Under the pieces are notes generated by a model, which was not told where the DNA came from, made no database searches, and saw nothing but the letters and a program-made list of their open reading frames with translations. DNA of 64,000 nucleotides, taken from Marsupella aquatica. Lineage: Eukaryota > Plantae > Marchantiophyta. Positions within the stretch are counted from its first letter, which is position 1; every line of letters begins with the position of its first letter. The DNA is taken from positions 25,109,899 to 25,173,898 of the forward strand of contig OZ316891.1 in NCBI GenBank assembly GCA_973895155.1. The letters run 5' to 3'. This document shows positions 19,741-45,039 of the stretch, one piece after another. Made by a program: the position numbers and the translations under genes.

Positions 19741-20017
19741 TTCAACCAAGCGCAGGGATAAGTGAGAAGGACGTTGAAAACCCTAACAAAGAGTGAAGAG
19801 GAAGAGGAAGAGTAAGGAAGAAGGGAGCACGTACCGCACGTACCGCACCGCACAAAACTACGTCATGGATATGGGACATCCCAACTATACTTGACAACGT
19901 ACATCTTGTTAACAGACCAAACAAGAAAGTACGCAAGGGAAGTACGCAAGGGTCTAGGATTTACGGCCCAGTATAGGGGGTACGTGTTTAGGGTTTAGGG
20001 TTTAGGGTAAACCCTAA
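19741..20017 (-). promoter_or_regulatory. Upstream module with telo-boxes and GTAC repeats, duplicated at 37311-37655
   Basis: Inverted homology to 37311-37655. (TTTAGGG)3 at ~19987-20007 and repeated GTACCGCAC. Confidence 0.55.
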
Positions 20018-20201
20018 ACGGTCCAAATGTCAAAGACCCTCGCCAAGAATTGATAGTGAAAGATAGGAAGGATCTCATGTCGCCAAGTATTTATTACTCA
20101 AAAAAGTCGTACAAAATTAGTCCATGATCTCTAAATCTGAACCAGGTGTGGCGTACTCCTGCGTATTCTATACACTAAACCGATAATGACATGAAGTGCA
20201 C

Positions 20202-20930
20202 CTAAAAGTTGTCACGATTGACACTTACACCTTGATCAAGTCTTTCCTGAACCTGCTCAGTGTACCAATTATCAAGACGAGTCCTTTTCCAAGCATCTAC
20301 TCGTTCTTGCTGAACACCATATATCGACAGATAACAGTCCGCTTCCTCCGAATCACATAATAACCAGGAATCGATCCTCTCATTTAAGATATCATCAGCC
20401 AACCGAGCCCAAACATCAATCGGTGGAAACGCTCTCATTGACTCACAAAAGAAGTGAGGTGTCAATTCAAGCCATCTTGTGGCACAAAATATCACAGCAG
20501 TAGTCATTGCAGCCCATGCTATGGAGTTTGTTATCAAATATCTCCATTTCCTGTTGATATGTGCAACAGACCGCACCATCAGGCACATCTTCCTCACTGG
20601 AGCATCCACAAGCACAACATCTTCCAACATTGATTGGATCCGGGGCCATATGTGCAACTCCACAAGATCATCAGGCAATCCCGGAATCAAGTTACCGGCT
20701 GGAGGGCGACATCGTAGGGGATAACGAGAGGAGGGGAGATTCCAGATGCGAGCACGGTCTTGTTCTTTACTAGCAAGAAGCGTCTGCAATTCCGATGTAA
20801 GCCTTTCTTGTGTCCTATCAATCACCATCTCACGTCCGCCTGCACTAGGATCCATAGTTTCGAACAAAGCAACAACCCTCATCCCAAGGACCCAAGCGGG
20901 TTTAGGGTCGAATCTGAGCCTCGCCAACAT
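20202..20930 (-). CDS. F-box-like protein B
   Basis: LIPGLPDDLVELHIWPRI...VAHINRKWRYLITNSIAW in an intact ORF. A paralog lies at 60584-61249. Confidence 0.7.
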   Translation of the reverse strand: MLARLRFDPKPAWVLGMRVVALFETMDPSAGGREMVIDRTQERLTSELQTLLASKEQDRARIWNLPSSRYPLRCRPPAGNLIPGLPDDLVELHIWPRIQSMLEDVVLVDAPVRKMCLMVRSVAHINRKWRYLITNSIAWAAMTTAVIFCATRWLELTPHFFCESMRAFPPIDVWARLADDILNERIDSWLLCDSEEADCYLSIYGVQQERVDAWKRTRLDNWYTEQVQERLDQGVSVNRDNF

Positions 20931-21213
20931 AAATCCGTAACCCTATACTTATAACGGTCATATTATAAACCCTAACCCCCTAACCCTAGGCCCGCAACCC
21001 TGAAGTCCATGTCGGCGAGGGTCGCCAAGATGACTCAGGAGTTACATCGGCGAGGGTCGCCAAGATTAGATGACTCGGCGAGGGTCGCCAAGATTAGATG
21101 ACACGGCGAGGGTCGCCAAGAAGTCCATGTCGGCGATGATCGCCCTAAACCCTAAACCCTAAACCTCGCTACCATTAGGTGACAATGTTAGCGAGGGTCG
21201 CCGACATACAATG

Positions 21214-24200: not shown

Positions 24201-25064
24201 GTTCAGCTTTGGGCCAATGTTTGCTCCCGTCTCAATTAACCGGCTCCACATGTAACAATCGTTCTTGCGCTCCATCCCAAAGAAGAAACAACCCTTAGAG
24301 TATGGACCAGTAAAGGGTGGCAACTCAAAAATATGGTCTCCATCATAGAATTCTGGCAATCGCAGAACTCTCTCGGGCAATTTCATGCTCAAAATCTTAC
24401 GAGCAGCTTGTACACAACGAGAGGTCCCTTTTCCGTGCAACATGGCATGAACAACACTGACAAGGAACTCATCCTTCCATACCGAATCACCATCTTGGAG
24501 ACCCTCGCAGAGGATGGATGCCTTTGAACGAGGTGTCTCCTTTGGTTGACGATAACAAGCTCCACGATCCTCCCAGAATTGGGATGTGTTTGACTGAGGT
24601 GTATTCATTGGTGAAGGTTCACCATCTCGGAGACCCCCTCTGACATGAATCCCACTGGATCGAGGTGTCTCCTTTGGTGGAGTATCACCATCTCCACGAT
24701 CCTCCCACATTCGAAATGAATTCGACCGAGGGGTACTCGTCCGAGAAGGTTCTTCATGTCGGAGACCCTCTTTGACATGGTGTGCACTTGGTATGCACCC
24801 TATCTTTCTGCAAAGAATATAAGACGCGCCATACTTCAGGTACCACTCTCGCTCATCTCCATCTCCTTTGGATTCAGCAGACATGGACAACCCGTCCTTG
24901 CTCTCCTCATAAATCATGAAATCCCCTACCTTCAAACCAAAACGGCTCGCTACTTCATGTTCCTTAGTCACTCGGACAATGTCAACGTTAGAATTACGAA
25001 AAACAACTACATCCCCCGTTAAAGATGTGATAATCACAAGAGAGGCCATGTTTCCCGAATCCAC
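21214..25064 (-). CDS. MULE-type transposase, two exons (25064-22881, 22692-21214), ~1220 aa: GCM-like Zn domain, DDE core, zf-PARP-like finger, SWIM
   Basis: Phase-0 GTAAGT...TTGTAG intron joins the 731-aa and 491-aa ORFs. Catalytic motifs WVMSDVMH, FMADNA, DAFHW (C/DxxH) and NHSGAESVHA. GCM-like CLGSLRC..C...CTYC...GNHTHP. SWIM PSCSCKDF...PCKYLYW (His changed to Tyr in this copy). Confidence 0.85.
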
Positions 25065-25363
25065 ATAGGGAATGATCTGACATCCCTTAAAACGACAAAC
25101 TTTGAGGCTCAGCGTTAACGCACCTGTACGTACCAGTTACGGCCAAGAATACCGTTCCGGACAACGTGCGTAGAGAAATCGTATGACCCGGAACGATACT
25201 TATAATGAGAATTGTACCGCAAAGAAGGTACCTAATTGCCAGCAGCCGCCAAGAAGGTACATTTCTGTAATGTGTGGATGTGGTACATTCTGCACGTCGT
25301 GGTCTTGAAAGTCCCATCGTGCGGGCCCACAATCCCTCGTGCGGGCCCGATCCCCTCTTTACC

Positions 25364-26195
25364 CTACATCAACTTTTTATCCATACTACTCGGCGAGGGT
25401 CTCTGAGATCTATTTGGGACTCCTGGGGCCCACACTCTTGTGCAAGCTCGAGTTTCACAGTAGGAAATTTGTTGACTTTTCAACATTGACTGTTCAACAT
25501 TGACTCTTCGAGTCGGAGCATCATCGACTTTTTATCCCTACTCCTACTCGGCGAGGGTCTCTGAGATCTATTCGGGACTCCTGGGGCCCACACTCCTGTG
25601 CAAGCTTGAGTTTCACAATAGGAAATTTGTTGACTTTTCAACATTGACTGTTCAACATTGACTCTCCGAGTCGGAGCATCATCGACTTTTTATCCCTACT
25701 CCTACTCGGCGAGGGTCTCTGAGATCTATTCGGGACACTTGGGGCCCACACTCCTGTGCAAGCGAGAGTTTCTCAGTAAGAGATTTGTTGTTTTTGCAAC
25801 ATTGACTGTTCAACATCGACTCTCCAAGTCGGAGCATCATCGACTTTTTATCCCTACTCCTACTCGGCGAGGGTCTCTGAGATCTATTCGGGACACCTGG
25901 GGCCCACACTCCTGTGCAAGCGAGAGTTTCTTAGTAAGAGATTTGTTGTTTTTGCAACATTGACTGTTCAACATCGACTCTCCGAGTCGGAGCATCATCG
26001 ACTTTTTATCCCTACTCCTACTCGGCGAGGGTCTCTGAGATATATTCGGGACTCCTGGGGCCCATACTCCTGTGCAAGCAAGAGTTTCTCAGTAGGAGAT
26101 TTGTTGTTTTTGCAACATTGACTGTTCAACATCGACTCTCCGAGTCGGAGCATCATCGACTTTTGATTCCGTCTCTTACTCGGCGAGGGTCTCTA
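25364..26195. repeat. 158-bp tandem array, ~5.3 copies
   Basis: CGGCGAGGGTCTCT at 25391, 25549, 25707, 25865, 26023 and 26181 (exact 158-bp period). Confidence 0.95.
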
Positions 26196-29100
26196 AGATG
26201 GATTTGGATGTAGGATTCCCAGATTGCCTCCTTGGCGCAGGTCTACTTCAGAGTTTGGTGTCGGTTGTTTGGAGTGCATATCATACTCGGCGAGCCTCTC
26301 TGAGATATATTCGAGCATTGTAAAAGAGAGAAAACGCCGGTCTGTATGGATATTTGCAAAAAAAATTGGATTCATGGTACGGAGAAGCGTTTCTAGTTCC
26401 ATAATCCCATTTGGGCGAGGGTCTCCGAGATATATTTGAGCATTGTAGAGGAAAAAACACCCAATTTGGAGTTGTCGAGTCGTTTTGTACGGATAATTGT
26501 AAAAAGTTTATGGATTTATGGTACGGAGAAGTGTTTCTAGTTCCATAGTCCCATTTTGGCGAGGGTCTCCGACATCTTGGGTCCCACGGCGGGGGACCAC
26601 TAGAAGAAAACCACCCATTCTGAGACCCTCCCCTATGTGACTTGTGCAAGACCTTCATAAATATGCGACTCCAAGTTTGTGGGTGTCATGTTAGTTACAT
26701 CATACCAACTAAGTTTTGGTGAGGCTGTGGGAAGTCATGCTTACAACTTTATCCAATGTCGCTATTGTAACACTGGTAAGTAAGAAATAGGTAAGTTATG
26801 TTAGTTACTCCACAATAGTGCATTGGACATCATTTTTTAAAATTCCGTCAGCATGCATACCCCATTAGCCAATTTCGGATGCCAATCCCTAATGTGCAAC
26901 TCCCGGTGCAACTACATATTGCACACTCATGGTTCAATAAGTCCAAATCTAAATGGGTATAAATATGGGGGTTTTCATCAAAATGGTGGGTACTTTCACT
27001 TATAATGTGGGGTCATACCTGACTATATTTGGCCTTGTTCTTGACCAAAATGCACTCTCCCCACATTGAACTTTTTGCTAAGTCATTTGCATTTGTTCTT
27101 TTATGTCCAAACCAACCTGTTTGCTAAGTCACTCGATGGCTGCCCACATGTGAGGGGTACTACTTTCCCTCAGGGTCAGTGTACCTTGGAGGTTGGTTTT
27201 GCGAGAGAAATTGGGGCCCGTGCCCTAAGTGTTCAGGGTCAGTGTGCCGCGGAGGTTGGTTTTGCGAGGGAAATTGGGAGTCGACGACCTTCATTCCAGC
27301 TGCACTCTTTGCGAACTTCCTGTAGGGGGCAATGAAAGTGTTTGAGCGCGATTGGACTTTAGGGTGCAAATGTGTTTAGGATTGGCCTGCTACGAGCGTC
27401 AGTGTGGAGGTCTGCCAATCAGTTTTGAGGGGAGTCCATTGTCGCTTTTCAACCTGCTGGTGAGCTAAGCTGCTATTGAGTTTCAAGTGAGAGCTGCCGA
27501 CTTGGAGTTGAGCTCTGCGAGGTCGAGCTTGAGTGTACATCTGCTCGACATACTTTTGGGAGCTCACAGTTGGCAGGAGGGCCAAGTCATTGCACAAAAA
27601 GTTGCAGCCGTGACAGTGCAAGCTAGGTAGGCGGAGGCTGGTTACTACAAGCAAGGCGGAGGATCACTGCGAGCTAGGCGGAGGAATGCTACACTGCTTC
27701 ACATTGTCAAGAGACATGCTGCATCGGCCCAAGTAAGGTTGCATTGACCTATCTATCTCTATGTCACCTCTATGTCTGTAAGGTCCTAACCGATAGTGTG
27801 CTTAGTGAGGTCCTGCTTTAAGCTACATTTGTGCGATTGATTGTGTCCTGAGAAGCTTAACCATCACATGGGGGAATGGTAGCGAGAAAGGAGGGGTGGA
27901 GCCTGATGGTCGCCAATATTCAAACAGGGTCGCCTTGCTCGATTTGCAAACTTTCACTTAGGACGTAGATTAAAGCATTAGACTATGGGCTTCAATCGCT
28001 ATGGAAAAGTAGGTTTTTGCTGCGTGGCCCTTCAACAGTTGAGTGGTGTGAGGGCGTGCAAAGACAACGAGAGCTTTGGAAAGTAACTGTCATTCAGCCC
28101 GTCGTCCGAGTTAAGTTGCTGGTTTTGCAGTTTTACAGTAGTGCTTCATGCGCAATTCATGATACGGGCAGTCAGCGGGCTGCGACAATGTAGAGCCTGC
28201 GACAGCATTTTGTGAGTGTTGCAAGGTGGGTTTTCTTTGTTTGCTCTTCTATTCTTGGCTGTCAGTCGATTATTCACCCCATCTCGTAGTGCATTTTCTT
28301 TTGTCTTCGTCTTTGGAATCCCTGCTGGGACACGGTCGTAGTAAGCGGAAGAGGTGATCAGGTCCTGGGTTTATCTTTTCTTGAGGTTTGTGTAAGAGCC
28401 GGGATCTGTATTTTGGGACAAAGTAGTGTATGGGAGCTGCAGGGCATCTTTTTAGGGTATGAGATTTTGGTCATGGTACGTAGTGGAATAAGATGGATTT
28501 GCGAACTGGGAGCTTGGATTTACAGAGTTAGGCCTTTGAAAACATATTTTTCTTCTTCATCATTTCTTCCCCTCGTGTCACTATGCACCAAATAATCCAC
28601 GGAGAAATCGTTGTATTCTATAAGGAAGTGAGGATTGGTGACAATATTGTGATACTTTAGGACGTGTTTGTGAACGTTCGCTGGTGTAGCGATCACCCGG
28701 GAATATGTGTTTTATAGCTGGAGTTTTCGATTCTCCAACTAAGTTGCTGATCCTTCCTCGACCTGCTTCATCTTGCAAAAGATTTGCTTCTAGCTCATTG
28801 ATGAGGCGGTAATCGTAGTAGGCGTGACTATCGAATAATTTCAGGGCTCTGAAGAGTCACCCGTGGCAGAGAACAATGATTTTGAACATCTTGAGAAAGA
28901 GTTTCAAGCAAGATCCTTTGGCTTTGCCTTGGGTGATAGCGAACACATGTGTGTAGGCTTCCACACAACGGCGTTCCATGATCTTGGAACCCACTTGCTT
29001 TCTGGAAGTGACTATCCAGAACCTGGGGTCCTCCGGTGGTAGCCTTATCCCAAGGTTTTTGATGTTGCTTCAAAGTTGCTTTGAGCTGTCGTCTCAGTAT

Positions 29101-29711
29101 CCATTTTCGCATCTTGGATTCGATAGTACTGAAGAGAGTGCCTGAGTTTCAATTGTCCTAAGAGATATCTCAATTCTCTAAGACGTCCGATTGTCAAGTA
29201 CAATGTCAAGACTGAGCTGCCAAGATGCAGGTTCATGCATGAACACTCTGTATTTACCTTACCTCGAATATGAGATCCTGGCATTAACGAATGACGACAA
29301 TGTGTTTGCGTGTCCTTTCTGCCCTGTCCCAGCTCAGAATGACTACTCGTAAAGAGCTGCAAAGGCAAAATTGTTTTCGTGTTCTTCAGATTGGCATGCA
29401 ACAGTTTTCTCAACAATAATTTAACTATGGGGTGCAACCACAATGAAGTGCACGAGGGCGGAGGGAATCACAGAAATTCACCGGGGGCAGCTGCATTGAC
29501 TTCTTGATCCATCGCATGCCTTGCTTGCTTCTGATGATCAAGGGTTGTTTTTTGCGTAGGCCAAGGGCCGCATTTTTGAGGACGCACACATGCGAGTTGG
29601 CCCTTATTGTATTGAGTAGTATTTGACAGGTTCCCTGTTGAAATTAGATCTGATCTTGGTTTTTGTTGTCGTTCTTTTCCTTCTCTCTATACTAATGCTT
29701 TTGTTTGCCAG

Positions 29712-29824
29712 GACGTCACAGTGATGGGGTCGTTTGATAATTGGATGCGAGGTGAATCCTTGTCTCCAGAGAGTACAGGAACATTCACAAATTTCTCCGC
29801 TACACTCAAATTGCGGCCAGGCAG
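29712..29824 (+). pseudogene. PTST1: Captured exon of a CBM48 protein, PROTEIN TARGETING TO STARCH 1-like
   Basis: DVTVMGSFDNWMRGESLSPESTGTFTNFSATLKLRPG, flanked by CAG and GT splice sites. Confidence 0.75.
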
Positions 29825-30326
29825 GTGGGTGGCTTTTCTTTCAGTCAACCATGAAGTAGGTCGTGTGTTTTTTCTCTTGAAGTTGGCAATTTTATGCTTC
29901 TCGATTCGTTCAACAGTGCGATGAGAAGTGAGGTTACTCCAGTATCTATGTGCACTACGGACCCTCCTGTCCGAATAGTTCACTATTGAATTGGTCCTGG
30001 ATAGATTCGACTATTCAGTTCCCAATTCCAAAGATTCCATCCACTGCCGGTAGATTTTATCCATCCGGCAGATTGTAGAGTCGCTAGCAGAAATAGTCGT
30101 ACTGTACTAACTAGGAAGCATGTGAAGAAGTAGTGTTCACAACCTCGTACTCTCGAATTACAACGTTGGAGGTGAATTGTAACTCTCCGTCCATCTGTAC
30201 TATGTTTTTAGATCGTAGCAGTTGACCCGAGTGTTTGTCCTTAACGCAGTTACCAGACAGATGCTCTTGTGTTGGTCTGATTCGGAGTTGAGAATGCAGC
30301 AGGTCGAAACTGGTGCAAATTTATGG

Positions 30327-30640
30327 ATCAAAGGATACCAGGTTTGGAGTCGAGGCAATTCGAGGGCTCTTACACTCCAAGGTGTTGATGAATTACCGAA
30401 TGCTGAGAAGGTTACCATGGGCCCAAAGGTGTAGAAGACATCTGCTTAACGTAATTATTGTCCGTCCCTCATAAAATTATGTCTAGGTGTGTCGTAGGTG
30501 CGTGACATCCTTGTACCAGTCACTCATTGCTTTGTGAATCTGTAACTCTTTTCCAAGGTCAAAATGTGGTTACAGAGCAAAGTTTTGGTTATCGTGAAGT
30601 TAAGAAGGATGGTGTGACGGTGGCAAAGGCCTTTTGCAAA
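30327..30640 (+). pseudogene. HSP60: Captured two-exon fragment of chaperonin-60 N-terminus (mitochondrial HSP60-like)
   Basis: KDTRFGVEA..RALTLQGVDELPNAEKVTMGPK, an intron at ~30429-30556, then GQNVVTEQSFGYREVKKDGVTVAKAF. Confidence 0.85.
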
Positions 30641-32373
30641 CTTGCCTATGGATCCTTGTCCTCCTATTTCACCTCACTGAAATTCTCGTTGTTCTTTCTT
30701 CTTTAACGTATAGATGAGTGCTATGTTGGAGGACGGAAAGAATCTTTACAATGAAGACGCTCCGTTAATCTTATTTGGTTGCTGCTCTAGAGCCTTTTCA
30801 TCCAAATTAATGAAAACATGACTACCTCTGTTTAGTATATTTGTCCAAACACGCTGCAGGATTGGAAGCTCGGTTACTATGGTGAGAGAGACACCACGGT
30901 CCCCCAGGTGCTCTTGATTGCTTCCGTCTGTCGTCTCCCCCTCTGTAGTTATAGCATAGTGTTGTGAATCAGTGCAGCAATGATGTGAGAAAATTATTGG
31001 TGTCACGTTGATGGGTGGGCGGCAGTGGGATAATCGATTAGGCACCGAAGGAACGAAATGAAAGAATGCCGTAAGGGCGCAATCGGATCTCTCTCACTCT
31101 CTCTTTCAACGCCAGGGGTCCAGGATCTTTGCATGCGACCATAACTATACCCAGAACTGTATGATCCAAGGGCCGCCAGAATGTTGTACAATGATGGTGG
31201 ACCACCTGGTGCTGTGGTTGACGAAGAAAAGAACGTGCCCTGCTTAGACACTCTTCGCGCACACAGCCCTTTTGCCATCACAGGTTGGTCTAGTTGTGCA
31301 ATTCTGCAAAAATTTCAGACAACAAATGCGGTCCTTGCCGAACACGATGCTCAACAGGATGGTGGAAGTTGCAAGAGTCTCCTAGAAGTAGTGGAAGGCA
31401 TGAAGCTTCAAAGCATTCATAGGATTGACAAACCGGTCTAGCTGTATGCACACTAATGTAGTGTATAACCAAGCTGTACGCACACTAATGTAGTGTATAA
31501 CCAAGCTGTAGATATTTCTAAAGGAAACTGTGGCCCAAATGCTAATCCCTTGACTTCTGGAGGTCACCTGTCTACAAAGCTGTACGCACACTAATGTAGT
31601 GTATAACCAAGCTGTAGATATTTCTAAAGGAAAATGTGGCCCAAAATGCTAATCCCTTGACTTCTGGAGGTCAGGAGATCTTATTTTGGTTGTTATAGCC
31701 AGCCGCATATTATTCCTTTTTTGATGTGAATTTTTACATTCCTGTAATCTGCCTATTCAGCTTGTCTTTCTTCAATCTTGGTGTATTTTACGATGGATGT
31801 AATTGTTTCTCCCAAAGAGTTCTCCTTCAGATATCTTGTCTGTCTGAAATCTTTTACTTCCATGCCGGCTTTGTAAATTCTTCACCCCCATGGGTCTTGT
31901 CGTTTCGGAATTTGGGGGCTTCCATATGCTTGACTATTCAGCTCTTAGTGCAGATGGTTTTCTCTTGACCATCAGCATTTGGCCAAAGGGTGTCTTTGCA
32001 ATCACAGTAGATACGTGTACAGTCTTGAATCAGAGTCAATGCGTTTTGGTGCCTGACTAAAACATTGTTGATGCAGAAAAAGAGAGGAGGTTCGCCACTT
32101 GCTACAAGAATCACCGCAGTCGCTTGATGATCAAATGAATGATGCAATGCAAGATGGCGGGATTCCTGGGGATCCTAATATGATCCTGCAGTGAGTTTGT
32201 GTGACATGAATAGTTCAATGTGGCACTGAAATTGTGATTGTATTTTCATATTGGAATGTTGCAGAACCACAGAATTTTCAAAGAAACGAAAGGAGTATGC
32301 AAGAAGGGTGTCCAACACTATCTCTGGGCGTGTGCGTCGGAGTGAAAGGTTGAGCAAGAAGGTGGTACCTACA

Positions 32374-35300
32374 ATGGCAGAATGTGGAGATGACATGGAT
32401 GCTGCACAGGTGGGTGCAGACACTAGACAAGAAGATGCAGATGATGAGTATTTTCCAGAGGAAATGGATGAGGATGGGGGTTATGAAGATGAATACATTG
32501 CAGAGCAGCCCCAAAAGAAACAGGTAAGTAGTTTTCCCAACAAGGTTTTGAGTTAAAAACTCTTATTTGGAGGTTTCATATGTTCAGTACTACACATATG
32601 TACCTTGCTTAGTTCCTGACATTGTAGTTGGTGATGTGATGCAGCGTCCTGCCAGTTCTGTTTTGCCTTCAAAGCCTGTGCATGCACCATACCAGCAGGG
32701 GGGGCTGACCTTTGATCAAGGTTGGCAAGGTGGTAGTAGTGGTAGATCCCAGGCTGGTGCCCAATACTATGGCAGGGGGCAAGCTCTAGGTTATGCCCAT
32801 GGTAGAGGCAGAGCAGGTCCAAACCCACAGTCTCGTGGGTTTGGACGTCCACCTCAACCATGGGGATGTGAGTATATATCTATATGCCAGTTCTTTGTGA
32901 AGGCATGACACTCCTGAATTTCAGACTGCATATCAATTTTTGACATTGTTTGGGATGTATTGGATTCAGACAACATGAAATTTTGTCCACCTACCATTGC
33001 ATGCAGATTCTGCCCAACCTGATTGGGCAAATGCTAGTAATGATCAGTTCCAATGTCCACAAGGACAAACATGGGTTGAACCAGGTTGGGAGGATGGTGG
33101 TGGGTCGTGGAATGAACAAGGTTGGGAAGGTGGTGAAGGTAATTGGCAAGGATATCAAAATACAGTACCTACAAACGTTGGAAGAGGGGCAGGTAATGTC
33201 TGATCTTGTCAGCAATGGAAGAACCCATTATATCTGGAGTCCATTCACGTGGGGGGGGATTCTGCACATGTATAATGATAGAAAATGTATGTGTGTAGGT
33301 TGGACAGTCGAACCATCGACTCAAGTATTCACTAATGCCCCTATGCAGATGCAGCACGGAAGGGGGACAGGTATGTCGGTGAATGTTCAGTTGTTTTCCT
33401 ACAGTTTGTACTTAGTTTTCAGTACATATGTTTGCACACACATACCTAGAAAGTGACATCATTCGGCCCCTGTACTAGGCTGGACAGGTGGTCCAGGGTC
33501 GCAACAATTTCAGAGTGCAGTCCCTGCACAGGCATCTACAGGCAGAGCTACAGGTATGTATGTTTGAAGAATTCTTCTTGAAGTGAAGCATTGAATGTTG
33601 CCGTCATCCATTCTGCTGTATGTAGTTCTCAAGCATGAATGGCATTGTATTTTCCCAGGTGGCTTCAGAACCCCAGGTAGGGTGAATGAAGGGGTGGCCA
33701 ATACAACGCCCAGTACTACCGAGAGCAGTGCACGAGGGGAGGTGACAAAGAAAGGGAACGTAAAGTTGAATGAGAGACAATGGGTGGATGCTGAGTGTCC
33801 TCGCAAGAACCGATGGCATGCTAATTTGAAAGCTGAAGTATTGCGTTGGTTAGATGTGAGTGTTATTAATTTTAAAAAACAGCATCCAAAAGATTGGAAG
33901 ACTGTATGTGAAAATGTTGCTGGCAAATGGAATTATGTGGGCAGTGATGATGGCGTGGACATAGGTTGCCTAGAGAGTACAGCAGGTAAAATCATCAAGC
34001 AAGAGAGGTGGAGAATGCATAAGGCTTGGAAGGAAGGTGGGGAGAAGCCAGATATGCCTCCACCAGCCAGTTGTGATGATAAAGTGTGGGCAAGGTTAGT
34101 AGCTTATTTTGTAACAGATGCTTCAAAAAAGAAGAGTTCACAGATGACCGAGGCCAGGTTGAGTGTTCAGAACCCTAATCTGACAGGAAGGACCGGCACT
34201 GCACCGACAGCTAAACGTTTGGTAAGAATGAATGGCCTAGCTATGTAATTTATGCTACACTATGTACTGTTTTTTAGTGTAAACCCATACATGTAAACTT
34301 TGTTTTTTAGTGTACATTCCCTGAATATTGATCGATAACTTGTGTTTGCCATGCATGTGCAGAAACCCCAATTGGGGCAAAGCCCTTCAAAAGAAGAGTT
34401 GAGGGCCAAAATTGTGAACACCCGAGCTCAAGAGGGTGTATCTGAATCCTCCAAGCATGTAAGTTATATGAGTTCTGATTGGTAATTGAATGACCTGCGT
34501 TGAATTTCAGGTGTACACTGTATATAACATTGATTGTGCATATATTGCCCAACATTTCATATGGAGTGATTGAACCTATACCCATGTGTCATGTAGGGAG
34601 GTGGATCTTTACTTACAGAGATAAGTGGTCGTTTGAAGGCTGTCGAAACATGTCTTCCAGAGATCAATGAACGTTTGAATTCATTGACTGACTTGTTCCA
34701 TGTGAACTTCAAGACATTAATGGAAGCTGTTGTGTCGGTGAGAGATAAAATTGATTCCAATTCTGCAGGAGTTCCACCATCACCACTTGAGGTGGCAAAG
34801 TCGATGCACTCTTCTGGCATGCCAACGACATGTAGGCTTGAAGGTAAGGCCTTTACAACTGTGTGGGATATGATTATTAAATGTATAGTTTGAATTGACA
34901 TTGTTTGTTGAATGTGTTATTTTTAGTAACATATATTGTGGTTGTTGTGTCCATAGAGAATAAGACAGGTGCTACAGAGAAGAAATATGAGAACCTGGCA
35001 AATACTCGCTGTAATTTAGAGGCAACAAAGTTGCAGTTTGTACAAGCAACTTGTTTGACAGAGGGCAGTCAACCATGTTTGGATAAGGATGACATTGGCA
35101 AGGGAGTGGATGATATCAATGTTGGGGCAAATGAGGATATCAGCAAGCATGACAAGGATACCATTGAGCCAGATTCATGCTATGTAGATCTTGACTCCAT
35201 TGCAGAGATAAATGATTTGCAGAATGTATCATTCTCAATGATAGGTGTGCCTCTTGTTGAGATAAATCCAACCAAAGAGTTAGTTGGTATGACACTCCCA

Positions 35301-35753
35301 GGTGATGAACCTGCTACTGTGACAGTCCTAATAGAGGAACCTACTGAGCCTAGCTTCACTACTGTGAAGAGAGGAAGCATGCGCACACGAAGCAAGTCTG
35401 CTGGTGGGAGCAAAGCCACGTCAAAGGTTTCATACAAACCTCCAAGAACAGTGCTGGCAGAAAGATCTAAAGTGGAAGTGGGGAAAGCACCTAATGCTGA
35501 GGGACAAAGTGGCTTGTTAGCTATTGATGAGAGTGGAACACGAGTAGGATTTGGCAGAGTGCAGGTTGGTTCCACAACGTTCCATGGCAAGAGGATTCCC
35601 CCAAGTTATTCAGTAGTGTTAGTCACATTACTAGTGAAACCTAAAGTTGTCCTTCCCATTCCAAACACAAATGATGATCCTCCTCAAAAGACACTTGGAG
35701 ATGCTGCAGGTTCTTTGGTATTATGGCCAAGCAAGTTCATAGAGGATCCATAA
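32374..35753 (+). CDS. CACTA TnpA/ORF2-like multi-exon gene
   Basis: Several GT-AG exons. Ptta/Transposase_24-like segment (VWARLVAYF...KKSSQMTEARLSVQNPNLTGRTG) and Tnp1/Transposase_23-like C-terminus (FHGKRIP...V.LPIP...TLGDAAGSLVLWP). Exon borders not all resolved. Confidence 0.7.
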
Positions 35754-37310
35754 CAATGTCATGCCATTATTTGTTTGTAGTGTGAGTCATGTCATGTAGA
35801 TTTTAGATGTCAAGAAGCAGTACAAGAATCATGTCCTCTTGGAGATTCATAGTATCATGCATGTGCTTTCAGTTATCTCATCCTGCAGTCATCAATTATG
35901 AGTTCCTGTTTTGTCTGAATTACATTGATCACATTGTAAACTATTCCATTGGAATTTAAATGATCTTCATTTTTTAGCAAGATTGTGATTGTGTTTAATT
36001 CTTATGAATGTTTTATGTAGGATCTGCTTATATGATGCTTTGTTTCATGTGGATGTCATTCATGCTATGTTCATTTCTTGTATTCAATGTGTTATATTTC
36101 TAAAGTTAGAACATCAGTTTCTATGTATTGTAATGTGGAGTGCTCTCTCTCCTTATGAACTGTCCCTCTCTGTTCATTAGTCATGGTTATAACTTGCATG
36201 TGAACCTTATTAGTTATAAACATGAGTATATAGAGTCCCAAATGGTTTTGTTGTGTGACGCGGGCCAGGGTCTCCATTGGTCTCTCCTGTGACACTAAAT
36301 GGTCACACGCTAGTCGTTGTTGAATGCGGGTAAGTCATGTATGTGACTTACTATGTGACTCGCTGAAGTCATATTGCAGTCACGTAGAAACAAGGCTAGA
36401 CTCCACAATAAAGTCACAGATCAGTCACAAATGGGTATCAAGCAAGTTGCAAAGCCCAGTATCAATAGTGACTTCCATTTTTTGGTCTCAACTTTTGCAA
36501 CTCCAAGGGTCACAGCGTGGGTCAAGTCACGTTGAGTCACAATGAAGTCACATGAGCCAAAATGAGTCACATATTGCGGTCTCAGTTCACCTCGGATTCT
36601 TCTAGTGGACTAATGCCTCTCAATTCCATCTCGGAGAGGGTCTCCGAGAGACACGATGCCTGATCTGCCTTACCTTTCCTCCCGTGATATGGTCCAAGAG
36701 TTTAGAGGCATTGCCATTTCATGCACACTACTCCTTCTCGAAGAGGGTCTTCGAGAGTACAAGGTGTCTGAAGTTCTTCATCTCCCTAGATAAAGTGAAG
36801 ACATTTGGGGCACACCTTTCTATGTTGGTGAGGGTCTCTGACATGGAGCAGGGGTATTTTGGATTTAGATTGTCAACTTCCTTGTCCACAATCCTCTTTT
36901 GCGAGTGTCTCAAAACAGGATGACTGCCAGATGTGGCACACCACGCCATCTCGGAGAGGGTCTCCGAGATCTATCGGTGCTGTCTCATTGCAGCTTTGTA
37001 TACCCCACCCAAGGGTATATAGGTTTAGGGTTTAGAGGTCTTTGTCAATCCCGCTATCCATTCTCGGTGAGGGTCTTTGAGATTTGGACTCGTATTGTGG
37101 GCCCCCATTCCCTCTTTGGGACGAGGCTCCAAGATGTTGACACGTCTCAGTATTGGCCCGCTATCCATTCTCGGCAAGGGTCTTTGAGATTTGGACTCGT
37201 ATTGTGGGCCCCCATTCCCTCTTTGGGACGAGGCTCTGAGATGTTGACACGTCTCAGTATGGGCCGCAATTAATTGTTGGCGAGGGTCTTTGAGATTTGG
37301 ACCCTAAATC

Positions 37311-37655
37311 TCATACCCCCGTACTGGGCCGTAAACCCTAGAACCTTACGTACTTTCTTGTTTGGCCGCGTACTTTCTTGTTTGGCCCGTTAATTAACAA
37401 GATGTACGTTCTCTAGTATAGTTCGGATCTCCCGTATCCATGTACTTGTGTGCGGTGCGGTACCGGGGATCTCTCGTATCCATGGAGTACTTCCATGCGG
37501 TGCGGTACGTGCGGTACGAGGGTCCTTCCTTACTCTTCCTCGTCACCGGTGCGGTACGTGCGGTACGAGGGTCCTTCTTCCTTACTCTTCCTTGTCACTC
37601 TTGCTCTTCACGCTTTGTTAGGGCTTTCAACGTCGTTCTCACTTATCCCTGCGCT
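37311..37655 (+). promoter_or_regulatory. Upstream module of the ParB-like gene (paralog of 19741-19985)
   Basis: Shares GTACTTTCTTGTTTGG, TAACAAGATGTACGTT, GTGCGGTACG repeats and TTCTCACTTATCCCTGCGCTT with the reverse complement of 19741-19985. Confidence 0.55.
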
Positions 37656-38207
37656 TCCTCACTCTTCATCATTCACTCCCCATCTCATTCACTCCCTGTT
37701 ATTCCTCACGCATCCTCGCTCTTCCTAGGTCCCCTCCGCTCTTTGTCCCAGTCTTCCAATCACGTTGGCTTTCCTCTCTTCCACTTATTCTTGGCAAGTG
37801 TGGCCGTGTGCCCTGGTTTGCGAAGGTGTTTTGAAGGCTTCACCTTGGCGGCGGTCGAGTCTCGTAGTTTCAAGCTCTGTGCTGGTTGGCAAAGGTGATT
37901 TGAAGGTCTTAGTTTGGTTTGAGCTCGGCAGTGGTCGACTCTCAAAGTTTCAAGCTTTGTGCTGCAAAGGGTGATTTGAAGGTCTCAGTCGGCGGTGGTC
38001 GAATCACTCTCAGTGGGTTGTAGTTTCAAGCGCGGCGCTTCACCCATCTCCGAGGTTGGAAATTTTGTTCACTGCATGACTGTCTACACGATTTGAATGT
38101 ATGTTGCAAGCTTGACATGTCAAAACTTTTGCTCGGCGGGGCTCGCCAAGATGTATGGTTATTGTGAAGTAATTCTTGAATGTTTTCTCATGTAATCTTA
38201 GATCACA

Positions 38208-41200
38208 ATGGTGAAGAGGAAAGACTCGGCTGGTTCTGTCGCTGGACCTGTTGATAGCGGAACTTTTCAGCGGAGTAAGAAACAATGGTCTTTGTCCCCT
38301 TCGCCAGTGACATCTCGACTAACACGCTCACAAGGTGGTCCCCTTGTGGAGTCAGTGGACTCAAGGAGGAAGTTTGAGCCAAAGCAAATATCGTTCGAGC
38401 CAATAGGAGCAGCGGAATTAGCAGATATTGCAGAGAAGGGAGCTTGGGAGTTGATCGTCTCCAAGTATGAGATGAAGTTTGAAAAAGATCCTCCCCGGAT
38501 CCCCTTATGCCGGCTCATGCCAATGGAGGCCGTCAGGAATCTTCATGATGAGTCAGTGGTCAAACTAAAAAAAGGATTCAGAGAGAGCGGCTATGTTGTA
38601 AAGCTCAGCGAGTTCCACATCACTGAGTTCAATGAAGCAGGGGAGACGAGGACAGTGGCAGAGTTCAAGCCCTATTGGGACTCGCTGTGGACTGAAATCA
38701 ATGAGCAGTTTGAGCAAGAGTGCGATGCGTCAGAGGACTTCAAAATGCTCAAGGACAAGATGGTTTTGGGTTTTTGACGGAAACCATAGGTACACAGCTT
38801 GGTCTGCAGTTGCGGAGGAGTTTCCAGATCAACCGCAGTACCATCCGTGTGTCAGATTCTCTCTTTTGAACGCTGGAAAGGACGGATTCAAGAAGGTTGA
38901 GCAAGCAATGCATGCTCTGAACTTGTAAGTAACTCACATTTTGCAACAACAGGTATACAATATTGTTTCCCTTGTGTGAATACCCTATTGGCAATCTGTC
39001 AAAGATTGCCTTGTTTGAATGTTAGACCTAAGAACATTCTTTGCCGTGTCCAGGATAAGCGTGACTGTCATGAGGACGTCATGGTTCAATGACGCCGATC
39101 GGGTGGCGAAGCTGTTGAACAATCCATTGGAGGAGTACAGTTTGCTTATGTCCAAGGAGACGCTGGAGGGTTTCCTCAAGGCTCGAAATCGTGGCCACGG
39201 GAAGACTTGGTACTCCAAGAACATGACAAAAGAGGCAGCTGTGTACATCATGAGCTGGTCAAACATTGAAGCGGGGCGAATCAATATTTCAAAGGAAATG
39301 GCACAAGACGCAGGTCGTGGGCACCCGTGGAATGCCAAGAGACTTGAGCATGAGACTGAGGCAATGATTACTGCTGCGTGCAAGAGCTGGGACACTAAGT
39401 TCCCCAAGCTTGCAGCCTGCGTGAATCCAACCAATGGTTTGGAATTCATCCTGGCATGTCGACAGCTCTATCACAAGTTGGCAAAGGAGGCCAAGCAGGG
39501 TGTCATGAATGTGCAGGTTGGATTGGACAGGATCCGCTTGTTTTCTGGGCCTTGGTTAAATGCAAAGTGCAGATTAAAACTCCTTGAAGGCTCATTTTGG
39601 AACGGAGGAAGATAGGAGTAGGTATCACCATCCACGTAGCAATAGTGATTCAGCGGTTAGATCATGGCTAGCAATGTGGTCAATGTGGTGTTACATCGAC
39701 TACGTTGGTTGTATCTTGTTGACCAATTTTGCTGAGAAGGCCTACCAGCCTGGCAATTTTAGCGGAACGCAAGAGGAATTTGCTGAGCTTTATAGAAAGC
39801 TTTACCGATCTTATGTGCAAGAGAAATCCTTAAAAGTAGGCGGTGACATTTGGAATGAAGGGAATACCAAATTGGCATTTTGGGAAGCGTGGATTAAGCA
39901 AACAAAGTGGTGCGTGACAAGATTTCTCATACATCAGGAGAACATGAACATCTCATACATGTTGAAACAACTACCATTGGTGATTAGATCTTGGATGGAG
40001 GCTACAGGTAGCCTTAGCATGTATCCATGTGATGGTAGCATGCCTCATGGCAGAGTATTCTCAGAGTGGGAACGGAGGAACTGCCCATGGTACATGGAGT
40101 ATGACAATTGGAACACTTTTCTCGAGGTTGCCGAGAAGGATAGTGCAGACCTGCTCAAAGAAGCACAGGAACCTAGTAATTACTATGATATAACAAAGTT
40201 GCGACAACTGTCAGATTCAGTAACGGAGGCAACAGAGGTGGAGACCCTTATCCCAACTGACCCTGCCTATGACGGGAAGAAGGCCAGAAAAGAAGGTGAA
40301 CGGAAGGTTGACAAGGAACCATTGAGCGACATCAGTCAGTCTGACTCGCTAACCAGTCCAAGAAAAACATCAGGTATTACTCGATTCCTTTTGCATTGCA
40401 TAGTGGTTTCATTTGGAACTACATCTTGGCTGGGTTTGCTAACATAGTACTGAACCAATTTCGGGGTCGTTGAGATAGACTGCATCTCATCTTGGCGAGG
40501 CTCGCTGAGAACAAACAAGTTTTAGTTGCATCTTGTCCAAACCCTTGGATCTCATCTCGGCAAGGCTTGCTGAGATGAACAGCCAAATGTCGTCTGGACC
40601 TTTGCAGATGAAGTATAATGTCAAGTGTCTGGATGTCATGTCGGCGAGGCTCGCGGAGAAGCTTAGGATCAATAACCCCATTGCTTTGCAATCTATCCAG
40701 GTATGAAGGAGATACCGGAGGAACCAGGTTTTGTAAAAAGCAAGGCTGTAGAAGTGGCTTCAAAGCCAATTATAGAGAAGGCTCCACAGCCAACAATAGA
40801 GTCGGCTACAGAACCAACTGCAGAACCAACAATAGAGCCGGCTACACTACAACAAGGCAACCAGCAAGTGGAGCAACAAAGCGTGCAGCCTTTGACAGAG
40901 CCAATGGTAGACCAGCCTCTGGACCAACAAAGCGAGAAGCAACAAGAGCATGACGCATCCCAGGGAGAGAACGCAACCCAAGGAGGGGATCATTCAGATG
41001 ACGTACGGGTAGATAACGAAGGAGAAGATGAACGGGTAGAGGACGAAGGAGAAGACAAACGGGTAGAGGACAAAGGAGAAGACGAACAAGAGGGGCGTGA
41101 GTCTAATACTCTGGCGCCAAAACGGATGCCATTATCCTCAAGGCCGAAGACAAAGGCTGCAAAAAAGACCAAAACAACGAGGCCCAAACCTCGCCGCGCA

Positions 41201-42453
41201 AAAGCACGTGACACTGAGCTTGAAGACATTCCGCCCAGCCCCATAGAGCAACCCCCGCCTAGCACCATACCACAACCCCCGCCCAGCCCAATAGAGGTTC
41301 CGCCCACGACAATCCAACATGAGGCCCCAACGGATGGCCCAAATTACGAAGAGGACGTTGAAGGAGAACCTGAGTCGGATGGCACAGAGGTGGTTGGAGT
41401 TCGGTGTTCAAGCGCCGATAACTTTTCTTCCCCGCTCAGGCATTGTTATTTTAAATGGTCTCCGTATCTTTTCAAAACTTACTTTGACGCTGCCAATGAC
41501 AGTAAAGAACCGGCTGTGGTACTCCGTTTTAGAGACTGGTGCAGAAAGCTTAGGCGGGGTGGTTTGGCTGCAGAAGGCTGGCTAAAGAACGGGAAGCCTA
41601 CAAGGTCTGGTGCAAATCTGATTCTGATTCAAATGGGATCAGACACCCGCATGCATGTGGATGGGAACATCCCATTGTGGAATTTGTTCCGGCCAGACGA
41701 CCTCAGTCGGGTTGAGGATTTTGTGTGAGTTTTCCTCGATGATGAGGGATTGTTTGGCATAGTGCACAGTGCTTCGGTTGCCCACTCCGCAGTACTTTGT
41801 GACAGTCTCAATTACGAAGAGACCAATTGGGTGCTGAAAGACACCTTTTTCATCTGGAACGCCACACCCACCTTTGACTTCACGACTCGAAAGCGGGTAA
41901 GTCTTATAGATTTAACTCCATTCTTGTCTTATGTTCTTTCGGTGACTTGTACTCAGAAAGACTCATCACTGACTTTGTTCAGTACCTCCAGAGTGAATAT
42001 CTCAAGCTGGACCTTTGGGGATTTAAATCGTCTGCCGAGGTATGCCCAAAGGATGACGTGAAGCCAATCAGTGTCGAGCTTGATATGAAGTTGAGGAACG
42101 GGCTAACTAACTATACAACGGGTCAAAATGAGACCATTGATGATTTTGGTGGCACCTTGTCTCCAGCTACACTCCAATGTATAATAGAATATACAACTAA
42201 GCTAGGGGGAACTGTTGTCACGTTCAATGCACACTTCGGGGCTATCTTTAAGGCTGGTGAGAATTGTGGGCGGATGGTCTTTGGGATCGAATCCTATCCG
42301 TACTTCAAATCTTATGTGGAACACACGATGACAGAGTTCGTTGGAGTGCCTCTAACGGAGCAAGAGGAGGCAGTGGATCGTCGAAAATCCAATCCAAAAA
42401 AGCGCAAGAAGAAAAAGCCTTCATGTGAGTTTACTACCGTTTCCCTTCAATGA
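38208..42453 (+). pseudogene. Multi-exon gene: ParB/Srx-like domain, helical region, acidic/Pro-rich linker, beta-class N4/N6 DNA-MTase-like domain
   Basis: RIPLCRLMPMEAVR...VVKLKKGFRESGY...FWVFDGNHRYTAW (ParB signature, +1 frameshift at ~38763). In-phase introns at 38925-39053 and 40374-40700, and another from ~41897. C-terminal SPATLQCIIEYTTKLGGTVVTFNAHFGAIFKAGENCGRMVFGIE resembles MTase motifs X-I-II. Further frameshift at ~39600 and stop at 41726-41728. Confidence 0.65.
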
Positions 42454-42965
42454 TTTTAATATTGTCCCATAGTATTTCAGCGGACTCGCCGAGATGGCTC
42501 TCCATCTGGGCAAATCCATCTCGGCTTACCTCTCCGAGATGCATGTCGGCCGGCCTAGCCGAGAGGATCGCATCTGGCCCGGGCACTTTGAGATTTACTG
42601 GAAAGTCCCTCTCAGCTGGCCTCTCCGAGATGCATGTCGGCGGGCCTCGCCGAGAGGAACTGCATCTGGCCCGGGCATATTCAGATTTCCAGGCAAGTCC
42701 ATCTCAACAGGCCTCTCTGAGATGCATGTCGGCGGGCCTCGCCCAGATGAATCCCGAGTGGCCTGGCCACGTCAACTTCTATTGGCAAGTCCACGTAGGG
42801 CCTTAGATGCGTCTGGAGGGACAAAAATACATCTTGGCTAGCCTCTCTAAGATCTATCTCGAAAGGCGACTCAATGGATTATCTGGGGTGTCCACATGGG
42901 CTCACTTGCCTCAAATTTGTTCTTGTGATCCGTCTATTTTGGCGCAATACATGATTCGATTTAAG

Positions 42966-44122
42966 TATAACTTAGTAGCAGTTCCCGACAGGACCACTGA
43001 GTCGGCAACCGAGGAATGGGACACACAGGACAGACGACTTGTGAAGCTTGCTTGGGAGGAAGCTTTGGCATTATTCTCTCCGGAGAAGTCAAGCCTACCG
43101 TGCTATGCTGATACGTATCATGAAGAAAGAGTTGCTCATTTTGTGAAAGAGAGAACAAGGAAGACTCTCAAATTTGTCAATGATAGGGCAGAAGAGGCTG
43201 AATCGGATGAGAGTAGCTTGGTAGGAAGTGATAGTGATAGTCTCCAAACTCACCATGCAAGCATAAGTTTGTCAAGCTCCAATTCCGAAGAGTAATTTTT
43301 GGGTGAATTTACCTTCATTGCAGCTCAGAAGCAAACTGAGCCACAACAACCAGTTGACGAGGTAGTGACTGCCCAGCAAGGAGTCAATCAGGGGGTGCCT
43401 GTGCACCAACGACTGAATCAGGGGGTGCCTGCACAACGACATCAACCCGCCATACTTGCGACCATAGTCAAAGAAGCATTGGACTCCAACAGGGACCAAG
43501 ATGAAGTCCTAGTCAGCCTCAGCGACTTAAAATTGAAGAGAAAAGATTTCAAATGCTTGAGGGCAAAAAAATGGCTCACTTGTGACATCATCAATGCTTA
43601 CATTCCTCTATTGGAGCATAGAGCAGAGGTCATTGCAAAACCCAAATGCATGCTTTTGCCCACACATTTTTACAATGTCTTGACGCATCCTGCGTACACC
43701 TTCAACGCAGTGTTGGCATTTGTGAAGGGCATTGACGTCTTTTCATTCGACCTCATTCTAATCCCCATCCACAGGCCAAAACATTGGGTACTAGCTGTGG
43801 TCAATTTTACTTTGCAGCAACTACATTTGCTCGATCCCATTGGAGGCGAAGCATCGGAATGCGACAATTTGGTGAATGTCGTCGGTTTCTCCATGACCTG
43901 TCCCGCTTGCGCAGTTGTCCCCACTTATCGCCATTACAATGGCAACGCATCATCCGCGACGATATTCCAGCCCAACCCGATAGTTACAATTGTGGAGTAT
44001 ATGTCATAATGTACATGGAGCGTCTTTCTAGCGGCTCTGTATTGGCGGTTGACCCTAAACATGTACTGCTTATACGACAAACGATTATTGTAGACCTAAT
44101 CTGCCAGACGATCAGTTTGTAG
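42966..44122 (+). pseudogene. Ulp1/SENP-family C48 peptidase region, possibly the last exon of the ParB-MTase gene
   Basis: WLTCDIINAY...THFY...LILIPIHRPKHWVLAVV...LLDPIG and, after a frameshift at ~43880, PAQPDSYNCGVYV (H-D-Q-C intact). 42807-43295 is in the same frame, separated by one stop. Confidence 0.85.
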
Positions 44123-45039
44123 ATAGAGGATCGATGGATTGCCTTTGTGAATTCAATTTGTGAATATTTCACAACAGAGCAACATGTTGTATACGAAGTA
44201 AAATAAAAATTTCCTCCAAAGGTTATGTTCTGGTCCTGTACTTTCTACGCTCGACCCCGTGTTGTTTTTCAATGTCATGCCGAGCTCTCCTGGATAAGTC
44301 GGCGAGGGTCTTTGAGATAAGTCTTTGAAAGGGACGTGTTGTATGGACTCTGTTGTACGATGTGTTGTATGGATCCTTTTTGAGATTTAGTAGCGACACC
44401 CCATGATATATCAAAGACCCTGTGTGAGAAGTTTTTTTTCCCTCAAATTTCAGTTGAATCTTGGCGGGGCTCGCTGAGATTCAACTGAACTTCAAGGAAA
44501 TCTCAGAGAGGCCGCCAAGATTGAAACTTTATATTCTCCTTCAATGTCAGAGAGGCAGCCGACATAAGAAATGGTCGAAGTAAAGTACCCGATCCAACCT
44601 CAAAGAGGCGCCGACAATGGCGCGGACTGCGATTGGGTTGTGGATTGGGTTGTGCCCCAGAAGAATTCATCTCAGCTGATTTGTTGAGTTCCGGTGTTGG
44701 ACTGATATCAGTCACTGATGAAACTCACTGATAATTGATGAAGTACACGACCCCTTGTCGTCGTCTTGACAACAAGTACCATAAATTGGCATACTTATGT
44801 TGTCAGATTTGGAAATAGGACCCTTGGGTCAACCTTTCACGATGAGTGTTGTGACCTTCACATTGAGGCGCATTTTGTAAGGACATATTTAATTAAACAA
44901 GTCCTACCCATGTGCAGCGAATATAATACGGCCCGAGTCCTAATCGTCAAACTGTCGTGCAAGGTTGGTATTGTGGATATCTTCGGTTAAACCTGGTGAT
45001 TGAAGGTACTTTTATTGGTGGTTTTGGTAGCTCTACTTA

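Follow-up and report, generated by a model that had tools for sequence, protein, structure and literature searches.

A ParB-like and methyltransferase-like accessory gene of a liverwort DNA transposon as a candidate self-targeting anti-silencing clamp

We examined a 64,000-nt stretch of the liverwort Marsupella aquatica (hereafter the window; contig OZ316891.1 of assembly GCA_973895155.1, positions 25,109,899 to 25,173,898), in which a gene starting at position 38208 joins a ParB-like domain to a domain resembling beta-class DNA methyltransferases and is followed by a Ulp1-type protease domain. The gene is an accessory gene of E1, a plant DNA transposon of ~19 kb that carries many copies of one 21-bp palindrome. 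In the reading we favor, which we hold to be about evenly poised between right and wrong, its protein acts as a self-targeting, ParB-type anti-silencing clamp. This reading builds on what the data give directly, namely the element, the gene structure, the homology of both domains, the loss of methyltransferase motifs and the distribution of the palindromes.

Three-frame translation and splice inspection of the plus strand place the gene start at the ATG at 38208 and predict GT-AG introns at 38925-39053, 40374-40700, 41897-41982 and 42425-42975/8. The parts of the gene are as follows:

38208..38924, plus strand: exon 1, with a disordered N-terminus and a ParB/Srx-like CTPase domain (VR, DGNHR, MHxxN); +1 frameshift at 38762
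38925..39053, plus strand: intron 1, at the same codon position as in relatives L001 and L002
39054..40373, plus strand: exon 2, a helical region; +1 frameshift at 39582
40374..40700, plus strand: intron 2, containing 3 palindrome copies
40701..41896, plus strand: exon 3, an acidic/Pro-rich linker, then the N-half of the beta-class methyltransferase-like domain with motifs IV and VI; TGA at 41726
41983..42424, plus strand: exon 4, the methyltransferase-like C-half with motifs X, I (TFNAHFG) and II (GRMVFGIE) and a basic KKRKKKKP stretch
42425..42978, plus strand: intron 4, with a 91/92-bp tandem repeat and 6 palindrome copies
42979..43295, plus strand: exon 5, with an LPxYA...FVxD motif and a TAA end, the likely natural terminus of a short isoform
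43324..44122, plus strand: Ulp1/SENP-like C48 protease exon, with His, Asp, Gln and Cys present; -1 frameshift at 43880

The product of 38208-42424, spliced as predicted, shows a colinear match to the Riccia protein KAL3677308.1 (P0158) over residues 21-660 (28% identity) and 969-1174 (25%), confirming that the N-terminal and the methylase-like domains belong to one protein. Intact exon-1 proteins of 51-86% identity stop at the same intron 1. Every motif quoted in a first-pass annotation of this DNA, made from sequence alone, is present: FDGNHR (38773-38790, in a reading frame reached only beyond the +1 frameshift at 38762), ANLILIQMGS (41612-41641, in which QMGS at 41630-41641 is motif IV), FLDDEGLFGIVH (41732-41767), SPATLQ (42160-42177), TFNAHFG (42220-42240) and GRMVFGIE (42268-42291). 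The palindrome-filled intron that the same annotation placed at ~42425-42965 also exists, but not with that acceptor: 42965 is out of frame and leads into 13 stops, whereas 42975, 42978 and 42981 are in frame. Two other candidate introns were rejected, one at 39622-39762 because the stretch aligns with Riccia proteins, and one at 43292-43323 because it is 32 nt long and out of frame.

For the N-terminal domain, we predicted the fold of P0158, which is 36-37% identical to the window protein over the ParB domain, from a 136-row alignment. The model is confident over residues 21-180 (predicted local distance difference test, pLDDT, 86-98), compared with a pLDDT of only 37 for an earlier model from 4 sequences. 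In a Foldseek search with this model, ranks 2-4, 6, 7, 9, 11 and 12 went to ParB, Noc and Srx, though below significance. Compared by VIA with 48,161 chains, the model found KorB joint first (Z 7.5, root-mean-square deviation [rmsd] 5.2, 190/201 aligned) and PadC fourth, amid helical-bundle noise. A second look with VIA at 644 Foldseek-ranked chains returned ParB, Noc or KorB for all of the top 11 (Z 8.1-8.6), the best being 7bm8 (Z 8.6, rmsd 5.0, 177/180) and 6sdk (Z 8.3, 198/199, model residues 33-393), with alignments that span almost the entire constructs of N-domain and DNA-binding region. The alignment of the DNA-binding half, to which the first part of exon 2 corresponds through the homologue model, is nearly complete in 6sdk, but at an rmsd of 4.7 within an all-helical region. 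For the ParB/Srx N-terminal fold itself, Noc 7ol9 aligned over 99 residues (Z 7.7, rmsd 3.7, model 29-192); PadC reached Z 7.2, and Srx only Z 5.6 (89/89 aligned).

The nucleotide motif of ParB proteins is G-x-x-R with an arginine upstream and an asparagine downstream. In a 67-row alignment, the long-coverage subset of 155 ParB matches, the glycine is kept in 62 rows, the arginine (R192) in 59, the upstream arginine (R108) in 61 and the downstream asparagine (N236) in 59. [DE]GNHR occurs in 106 of 150 homologues among the matches listed. Pfam, PHROGs and PDB sequence searches of pieces of the window gave no significant ParB or methyltransferase match; the ParB-like assignment made in the first pass is nonetheless borne out by the matches of the homologue model to ParB, Noc and KorB, and the CTPase and DNA-binding halves are predicted to resemble those of these proteins.

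Where the domain came from is a separate matter. In the Atlas, residues 150-400 of P0158 have fungal DUF3723 and sponge-rich clusters as their closest neighbours (0.96), followed by ParB_N (0.92, 126 features shared), and DUF3723 is the top match of the N-domain (0.96, 185/256 features shared). PF12520 was not matched by hmmscan in 37 relatives at E ≤ 0.05, and short-pattern searches found no relative among viral or prokaryotic genome contigs. We read the N-domain as a true ParB-clamp-like module that has long belonged to eukaryotic mobile elements and was not lately acquired from bacteria. Its earlier description as prokaryote-derived would then hold for the ultimate origin only: a close prokaryotic relative was not found in these searches, and what most resembles the N-domain is eukaryotic, namely fungal DUF3723. 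The connection of DUF3723 to the ParB-like domain is a lead only.

The second half of the protein has the motif order of a beta-class amino-methyltransferase. We compared a family profile, made from 10 hand-cut segments (10 of 160 proteins, chosen for a visible methyltransferase part), with a profile of 88 phage and plasmid beta-class domains. The score was 92.1 over 197 columns (HHalign 98.2%, E 4.8e-14), against at most 21.2 in 25 column shuffles; the N-half alone scored 32.5 against a shuffle maximum of 17.9. The window's own spliced domain scored 33.7 against the 88-domain profile (at most 22.6 in 40 shuffles), and its N-half, which alone gave no match, was matched only within the family profile. 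The alignment is colinear over all 197 columns in the permuted order IV-VIII, target recognition domain, X-I-II-III, as the first pass had proposed. Searches by tblastn with the relatives P0005 and P0159 reached E 0.01-9 only, yet nearly all listed rows are DNA methylases, as are all the weak matches of the C-half. Three Riccia relatives match PF01555 at E 9e-6 to 5e-5, just below cut-off, and Riccia members lie at 0.95 in the Atlas to PF01555 clusters. In the P0158 model this part has a pLDDT <50, with an alignment depth of just 3-7 rows.

Both signature motifs are degenerate in the window branch. In the profile alignment LILIQMGS falls opposite LVLTDPPY, and TFNAHFG opposite DPFAGSG: where catalytic motif IV reads [DNS]PP[YFW] in 76 of the 88 controls the window has QMGS, and where the S-adenosylmethionine-binding motif I reads DxFxGxG in 60 of them it has TFNAHFG, a sequence also found in P0005 (68% identical). 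Motif IV is DLPT, DMPS or DMPT in Riccia and DVPF or DFPI in Adiantum, and motif I is DFAGGWG in Riccia and QMYAGCG in Adiantum. The motifs of these relatives are less degenerate. Because of them, we apply the word dead to the window branch only: its methyltransferase is likely to be catalytically dead, judging from its motifs, and the whole family not necessarily so.

The window copy itself is pseudogenised, as had been noted, by four lesions: +1 at 38762, +1 at 39582, TGA at 41726 and -1 at 43880. We compared it with contigs from four public runs (two studies; 402-793 contigs placed per run), all of which behave as DNA, with introns covered. The first three lesions are absent from all or nearly all of the contig depth over the gene and the fourth from 62-94% across the four runs; most other copies are without them. 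The predominant differences are a T in the window for a C in the reads and an A for a G. These differences, together with the absence of the lesions elsewhere, indicate that this member of a multi-copy family has decayed and is probably methylated.

It could be argued that the methyltransferase still works, or once did in the family, through a non-canonical site, tagging the element as self with N4-methylcytosine (4mC) or N6-methyladenine (6mA), and that the window branch is a decaying side line. Fern relatives do keep D-x-P-F/I and Riccia keeps DFAGGWG; in the accessible parts of the sources cited below, an Ectocarpus protein has been suggested to methylate the element that encodes it, and beta-like 4mC enzymes of Marchantia, with TSPPY, are active. 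We find this rather improbable, as motifs IV and I of the window are both off consensus and motif I is identical in P0005. The main X1 contig shows 14 differences over 41147-42263, and the 7 itemised ones all lie outside the methyltransferase motifs; restoring DPPY would need 8 changes against the 7 unitemised differences, although DMPS, at 4 changes, would fit.

The gene sits in an element with the following features:

15731..44748, strand not assigned: E1, ~19 kb without the nested CACTA element; 56 palindrome copies
15731..15775, plus strand: left end of E1, resembling a terminal inverted repeat (TIR), GTACATCATCAGTTATCAGTGACTGATATCAGTC
44700..44748, minus strand: right TIR-like end of E1, an inverted copy of the left end
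21214..25049, minus strand: transposase-like gene, a 1215-aa open frame after one intron (22880-22693, with two palindromes inside)
26598..36607, strand not assigned: nested CACTA element with CACTA...TAGTG ends and a 3-bp GAC duplication, splitting E1

The transposase-like gene, intact and divergent, belongs to the same element as the ParB-methyltransferase gene, with the 10-kb CACTA between them. A Cys/His finger, D..D..H / E motifs and a SWIM-like end (CxC..CK) were read in it by eye; it has no Pfam match, and these motifs would make it similar to transposases of Mutator-like elements (MULEs). The CACTA looks complete and matches Transposase_24 (E 1.6e-4), and X1 and X2 contigs join 26593 to 36607, the empty CACTA site; the right 4.3 kb of the CACTA has ~10x the summed contig depth of the remainder. 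MULE TIRs come with an 8-11-bp target-site duplication (accessible part of PMC6446971). E1 has only short imperfect inverted ends, whose motif occurs in the window only at 15731-75, 44700-48 (inverted) and 54385-445, and no target-site duplication of at least 6 bp at any tested boundary. We class E1 as MULE-like only, not as a MULE.

The palindrome reads TCTCGGCGA-GGG-TCGCCGAGA. Allowing up to 5 mismatches, we found 82 sites of this 21-bp sequence, all in E1 or its relative E2 (described below), and 0 in the CACTA, LTR-like (long terminal repeat) and flanking DNA. Control sequence gave 1 site per 243,627 bases, and three 20-kb Markov sequences gave 0. The sites run through E1 from end to end, including <100 bp from the left end, and 54 of the 56 lie outside open reading frames (ORFs), though ORFs make up 57% of its length. 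A general excess of palindromes with 9-bp arms was not seen in E1, and the signal is that of one specific motif. Two metagenomic relatives (L001 and L002; 47% and 51% protein identity) keep intron 1, with three palindrome sites there. The inverted ends and the transposase-like gene support the transposon setting; the idea of self-targeting raised in the first pass is strengthened by the spread of the palindromes over the entire element. Tandem arrays at 17734-18411, 25367-26207 and 61381-62835 (units of 37, 158 and 235 bp) multiply the palindrome, much as VANC targets are amplified in tandem. An ORF at 16529-17320 (minus strand), close to the left end of E1, carries three KRGRPRKH AT-hook-like repeats and is a rival binder of element DNA.

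The same distribution might instead serve transposition or inheritance: a ParB clamp loaded on the palindromes would compact the 19-kb element and bring its ends to the transposase, with the methyltransferase and Ulp1 as passengers or acting on the transposase. The end-to-end spread of the sites, up to the left end and into the transposase intron, suits such a role, and there is an analogy in the condensation of DNA around parS by ParB. In the accessible literature, moreover, giant elements from unrelated superfamilies, which share a long-range synapsis problem, repeatedly carry ParB-like cargo, and the nearest look-alike, DUF3723, is conserved Starship cargo. We think it unlikely all the same, since the ParB cargo described in those sources is always joined to modifiers of DNA or chromatin (methyltransferase, 2-oxoglutarate (2OG) oxygenase, nearby SET, Ulp1), pointing to chromatin, and since a related transposase-like gene at 49719-53168 stands without palindromes and without a ParB gene in the visible stretch.

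Downstream, the Ulp1 domain exceeds the Pfam cut-off for Peptidase_C48 in two frames (43.1 and 28.5 bits against 20.7), matches SENP1 at E 1.1e-17 and keeps the catalytic His-Asp-Cys and Gln (KHW, LLD, AQP, NCG). The first pass suggested that it could be spliced to the gene through the palindrome-filled intron. That intron and an intact-looking Ulp1 exist, but intron 4 runs to the 105-codon exon 5, which ends in a TAA at 43293-43295 ahead of the Ulp1 ORF, and not directly to Ulp1. The LPxYA...FVxD of exon 5 resembles the C-terminus of P0107, at a score reached by 4 of 1000 shuffles; its likeness to the C-terminus of P0024 is not significant (105/1000), and that of P0158 shows none (560/1000). 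A strong acceptor stands at 43323, 28 bases past the TAA, the Ulp1 ORF has no ATG of its own ahead of the domain, and exon 5 contains four to five donors (e.g. 43213) that reach this acceptor in frame. Because of the short gap, the missing ATG and these donors, exon 5 would have to be common to Ulp1 and the upstream gene, and the simplest reading of the splice signals would be two isoforms, with and without Ulp1.

Separate products are the other way to read this region. The ParB-methyltransferase would end at the TAA at 43293 and act as a KorB-like transposase repressor, and Ulp1 would be a captured host-type protease with its own start in intron 4, as in KI-MULEs. An in-frame ATG at 42951, the likeness of exon 5 to P0107 (and weakly to P0024), the place of KorB as best wide structural match and the frequency with which MULEs capture Ulp1, in the accessible accounts, all fit. 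The 28-base gap, the lack of an ATG before the domain and the donors reaching 43323 speak the other way, and we hold separate products to be quite unlikely.

Known CTP-switch clamps come from bacteria, archaea and the plasmids of both. In the anti-silencing reading that we favor, the E1 protein would bind CTP (cytidine triphosphate), be loaded at the 21-bp palindromes of its element and slide or spread along it, keeping the chromatin open. In the window branch the methyltransferase-like domain would no longer methylate and would serve to sense DNA or methylcytosine. The Ulp1 domain would be joined by a second, probably alternative, splice, and this isoform would deSUMOylate silencing proteins bound to the element. 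The outcome would be anti-silencing of the VANC/KIU type by means of bacterial parts, with precedents in algal ParB genes beside inverted repeats, in VANC/KIU anti-silencers with Ulp1 and in VirB.

Several points count against this reading. Foldseek with the P0158 model returned nothing at E ≤ 0.001; the VIA Z values are middling, the rmsd is 4.4-5.0, and the fold is that of the Riccia homologue, not of the window protein. At the sequence level the link to ParB is weak: 3 of the 67 members match phrog_1033, at E 0.0027 or worse, and the PDB sequence search gave no ParB match. The motifs of the Riccia and Adiantum relatives are less degenerate, which confines the loss of catalysis to the window branch. 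On the Ulp1 side, the TAA at 43293 interrupts the putative fusion, so that a second splice is required; no fetched full-length relative resembles Ulp1, and P0158 ends without it. The transposase or the AT-hook ORF could bind the palindrome instead. The CpG dinucleotides of the palindromes decay like methylated DNA (C17 is T in 33 of 82 sites, G18 is A in 20 of 82); protection, if any, therefore fails in these copies.

Comparison with known systems, drawn from the accessible portions of the literature sources cited here, places the locus among several partial precedents. In Ectocarpus, the 21.5-kb Sola-1 element Sola1-1_Ec32 carries a gene with ParB and N4/N6 methyltransferase domains opposite its transposase, with self-binding and self-modification proposed (PMC12477816). 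As here, both domains lie in one protein (~1100 aa there), on the strand opposite the transposase, in a DNA transposon of ~20 kb. The differences, by description only, are that the host is a brown alga and the element a Sola-1, and that the accessible description mentions no Ulp1, degenerate motifs or palindromes. In the red alga Bostrychia, Plavaka PAG2 and PAG3 carry ParB-2OG and methyltransferase-SET cargo beside tandem inverted repeats that are proposed ParB sites (bioRxiv 10.1101/2025.02.11.637652). These 17-19-kb elements share with E1 the ParB-like domain and a PF01555 methylase, but divide them between two genes, have an EnSpm-type transposase and keep the repeats adjoining the gene, whereas the palindromes here occur throughout the non-coding parts. 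The phage and prophage context invoked in the first pass is thus incomplete, transposon cargo with ParB and methyltransferase domains and adjacent inverted repeats having already been described in brown and red algae.

For function, the closest parallels are VANC of VANDAL MULEs, an anti-silencing factor whose targets are short non-coding motifs, often tandemly repeated (PMC5735166), and KIU (Kaonashi), a VANC-like plant precedent with a Ulp1 domain in some versions (PMC13317346). They share with E1 an element-encoded factor, short and often tandem non-coding motifs and, in some versions, Ulp1; unlike here, where it is inferred, anti-silencing by VANC has been demonstrated, and the accessible text reports no ParB or methyltransferase homology for VANC. 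Among bacterial proteins, VirB is a CTP-dependent anti-silencer (PMC10653881). The E1 protein resembles ParB, Noc, KorB and VirB (7bm8, 6sdk, 7ng0, 8qa8) in the predicted fold of its nucleotide-binding and helical parts, in G-x-x-R with flanking R and N, and in a candidate palindromic site; it differs in its 10-14% identity, a ~50-residue insertion in the N-domain, the fused methyltransferase-like domain and its introns. Marchantia DN4MT1a/b are host genes with intact TSPPY and 4mC activity in sperm (bioRxiv 10.1101/2021.02.12.428880), another prokaryote-type amino-methyltransferase in an early-diverging land plant; the word ParB is absent from that paper. Starship DUF3723, like our N-domain by its Atlas match and as cargo of giant elements, is conserved there and, in the accessible text, likened to TIGR02168, not ParB (bioRxiv 10.1101/2021.12.13.472469). 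ParB-linked N6A-methyltransferases were reported from algae, fungi and phages, with few in land plants (Iyer 2016, PMC4738411).

E1 has relatives in the window. E2 (54385-63623) is of the same family, with the same left end, F-box-like genes, a SWIM exon 85% identical and 26 palindrome sites; an LTR-like insert interrupts it, and it is cut near the window end. Between the two, 44749-54384 is a more distant relative with an F-box-like gene and the transposase-like gene at 49719-53168 (28-46% identity); neither palindromes nor a ParB gene are within view there. The small F-box-like cargo genes (18700-20942, 45089-45577, 55228-56064 and 60521-61294) number two per element, are mutually 24-41% identical and match Pfam F-box at E 0.05-0.16 only; with Ulp1 they would give the element two ubiquitin/SUMO-pathway tools. 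Short plant-telomere-like CCCTAAA runs occur in non-coding parts of the elements (19986-20011, 21140-21166, 37020-37035 and 61369-62471). At 19644-19697 contigs exit the window on both sides into letters that look like large-subunit rRNA, possibly marking a captured 54-base scrap of ribosomal DNA. No Rfam family reached its gathering score in 15000-47000. A gag-like ORF on the left is not continued beyond the right end of E1, and three diverged ~570-bp tandem repeats at 121-1559 lie outside the elements.

The gene belongs to a large family. A profile search returned 293 clusters at E ≤ 0.001, of which 150 were listed; the ten long matches whose source was traced all come from Riccia sorocarpa or Adiantum, and one of ten shorter ones could be assigned, to Adiantum. 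In the Adiantum homologue P0070, an NIF/FCP1-like phosphatase domain follows the methyltransferase C-half (residues 955-1129, E 2.4e-12), which may reflect a further exchange of effectors or two genes joined in annotation. Our literature search, whose coverage stopped short of subscription papers, Iyer 2011 and bioRxiv supplements (the last of which may hold land-plant homologues), found no land-plant description of such a family and no paper combining DUF3723 and ParB. New here are the large liverwort and fern ParB-methyltransferase family, a branch that couples a pseudo-methylase to Ulp1, and the lead to fungal Starship DUF3723.

The combination of ParB, a DNA-modifying domain and inverted repeats has, in the accessible sources, been proposed from sequence in algae, and this locus brings a land-plant case. 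It supplies a 21-bp candidate site kept in relatives with ~50% protein identity, along with intact copies, a transposase-like gene that is itself intact, and the 293-cluster family, with named Riccia and Adiantum members whose methylase motifs are both near-intact and dead. A nuclear CTP clamp in a eukaryote would, if true, be new biochemistry, and a sequence-specific, spreading anti-silencer would be a tool for epigenome editing. More tentatively, and with doubt outweighing belief, liverworts and ferns may carry hundreds of transposon-encoded nuclear CTP-dependent clamps that load at parS-like palindromes and drag a methylase (active or reader) and a SUMO protease against silencing; the same clamp would then underlie Starship DUF3723 and algal ParB cargo as a general device of giant eukaryotic transposons.

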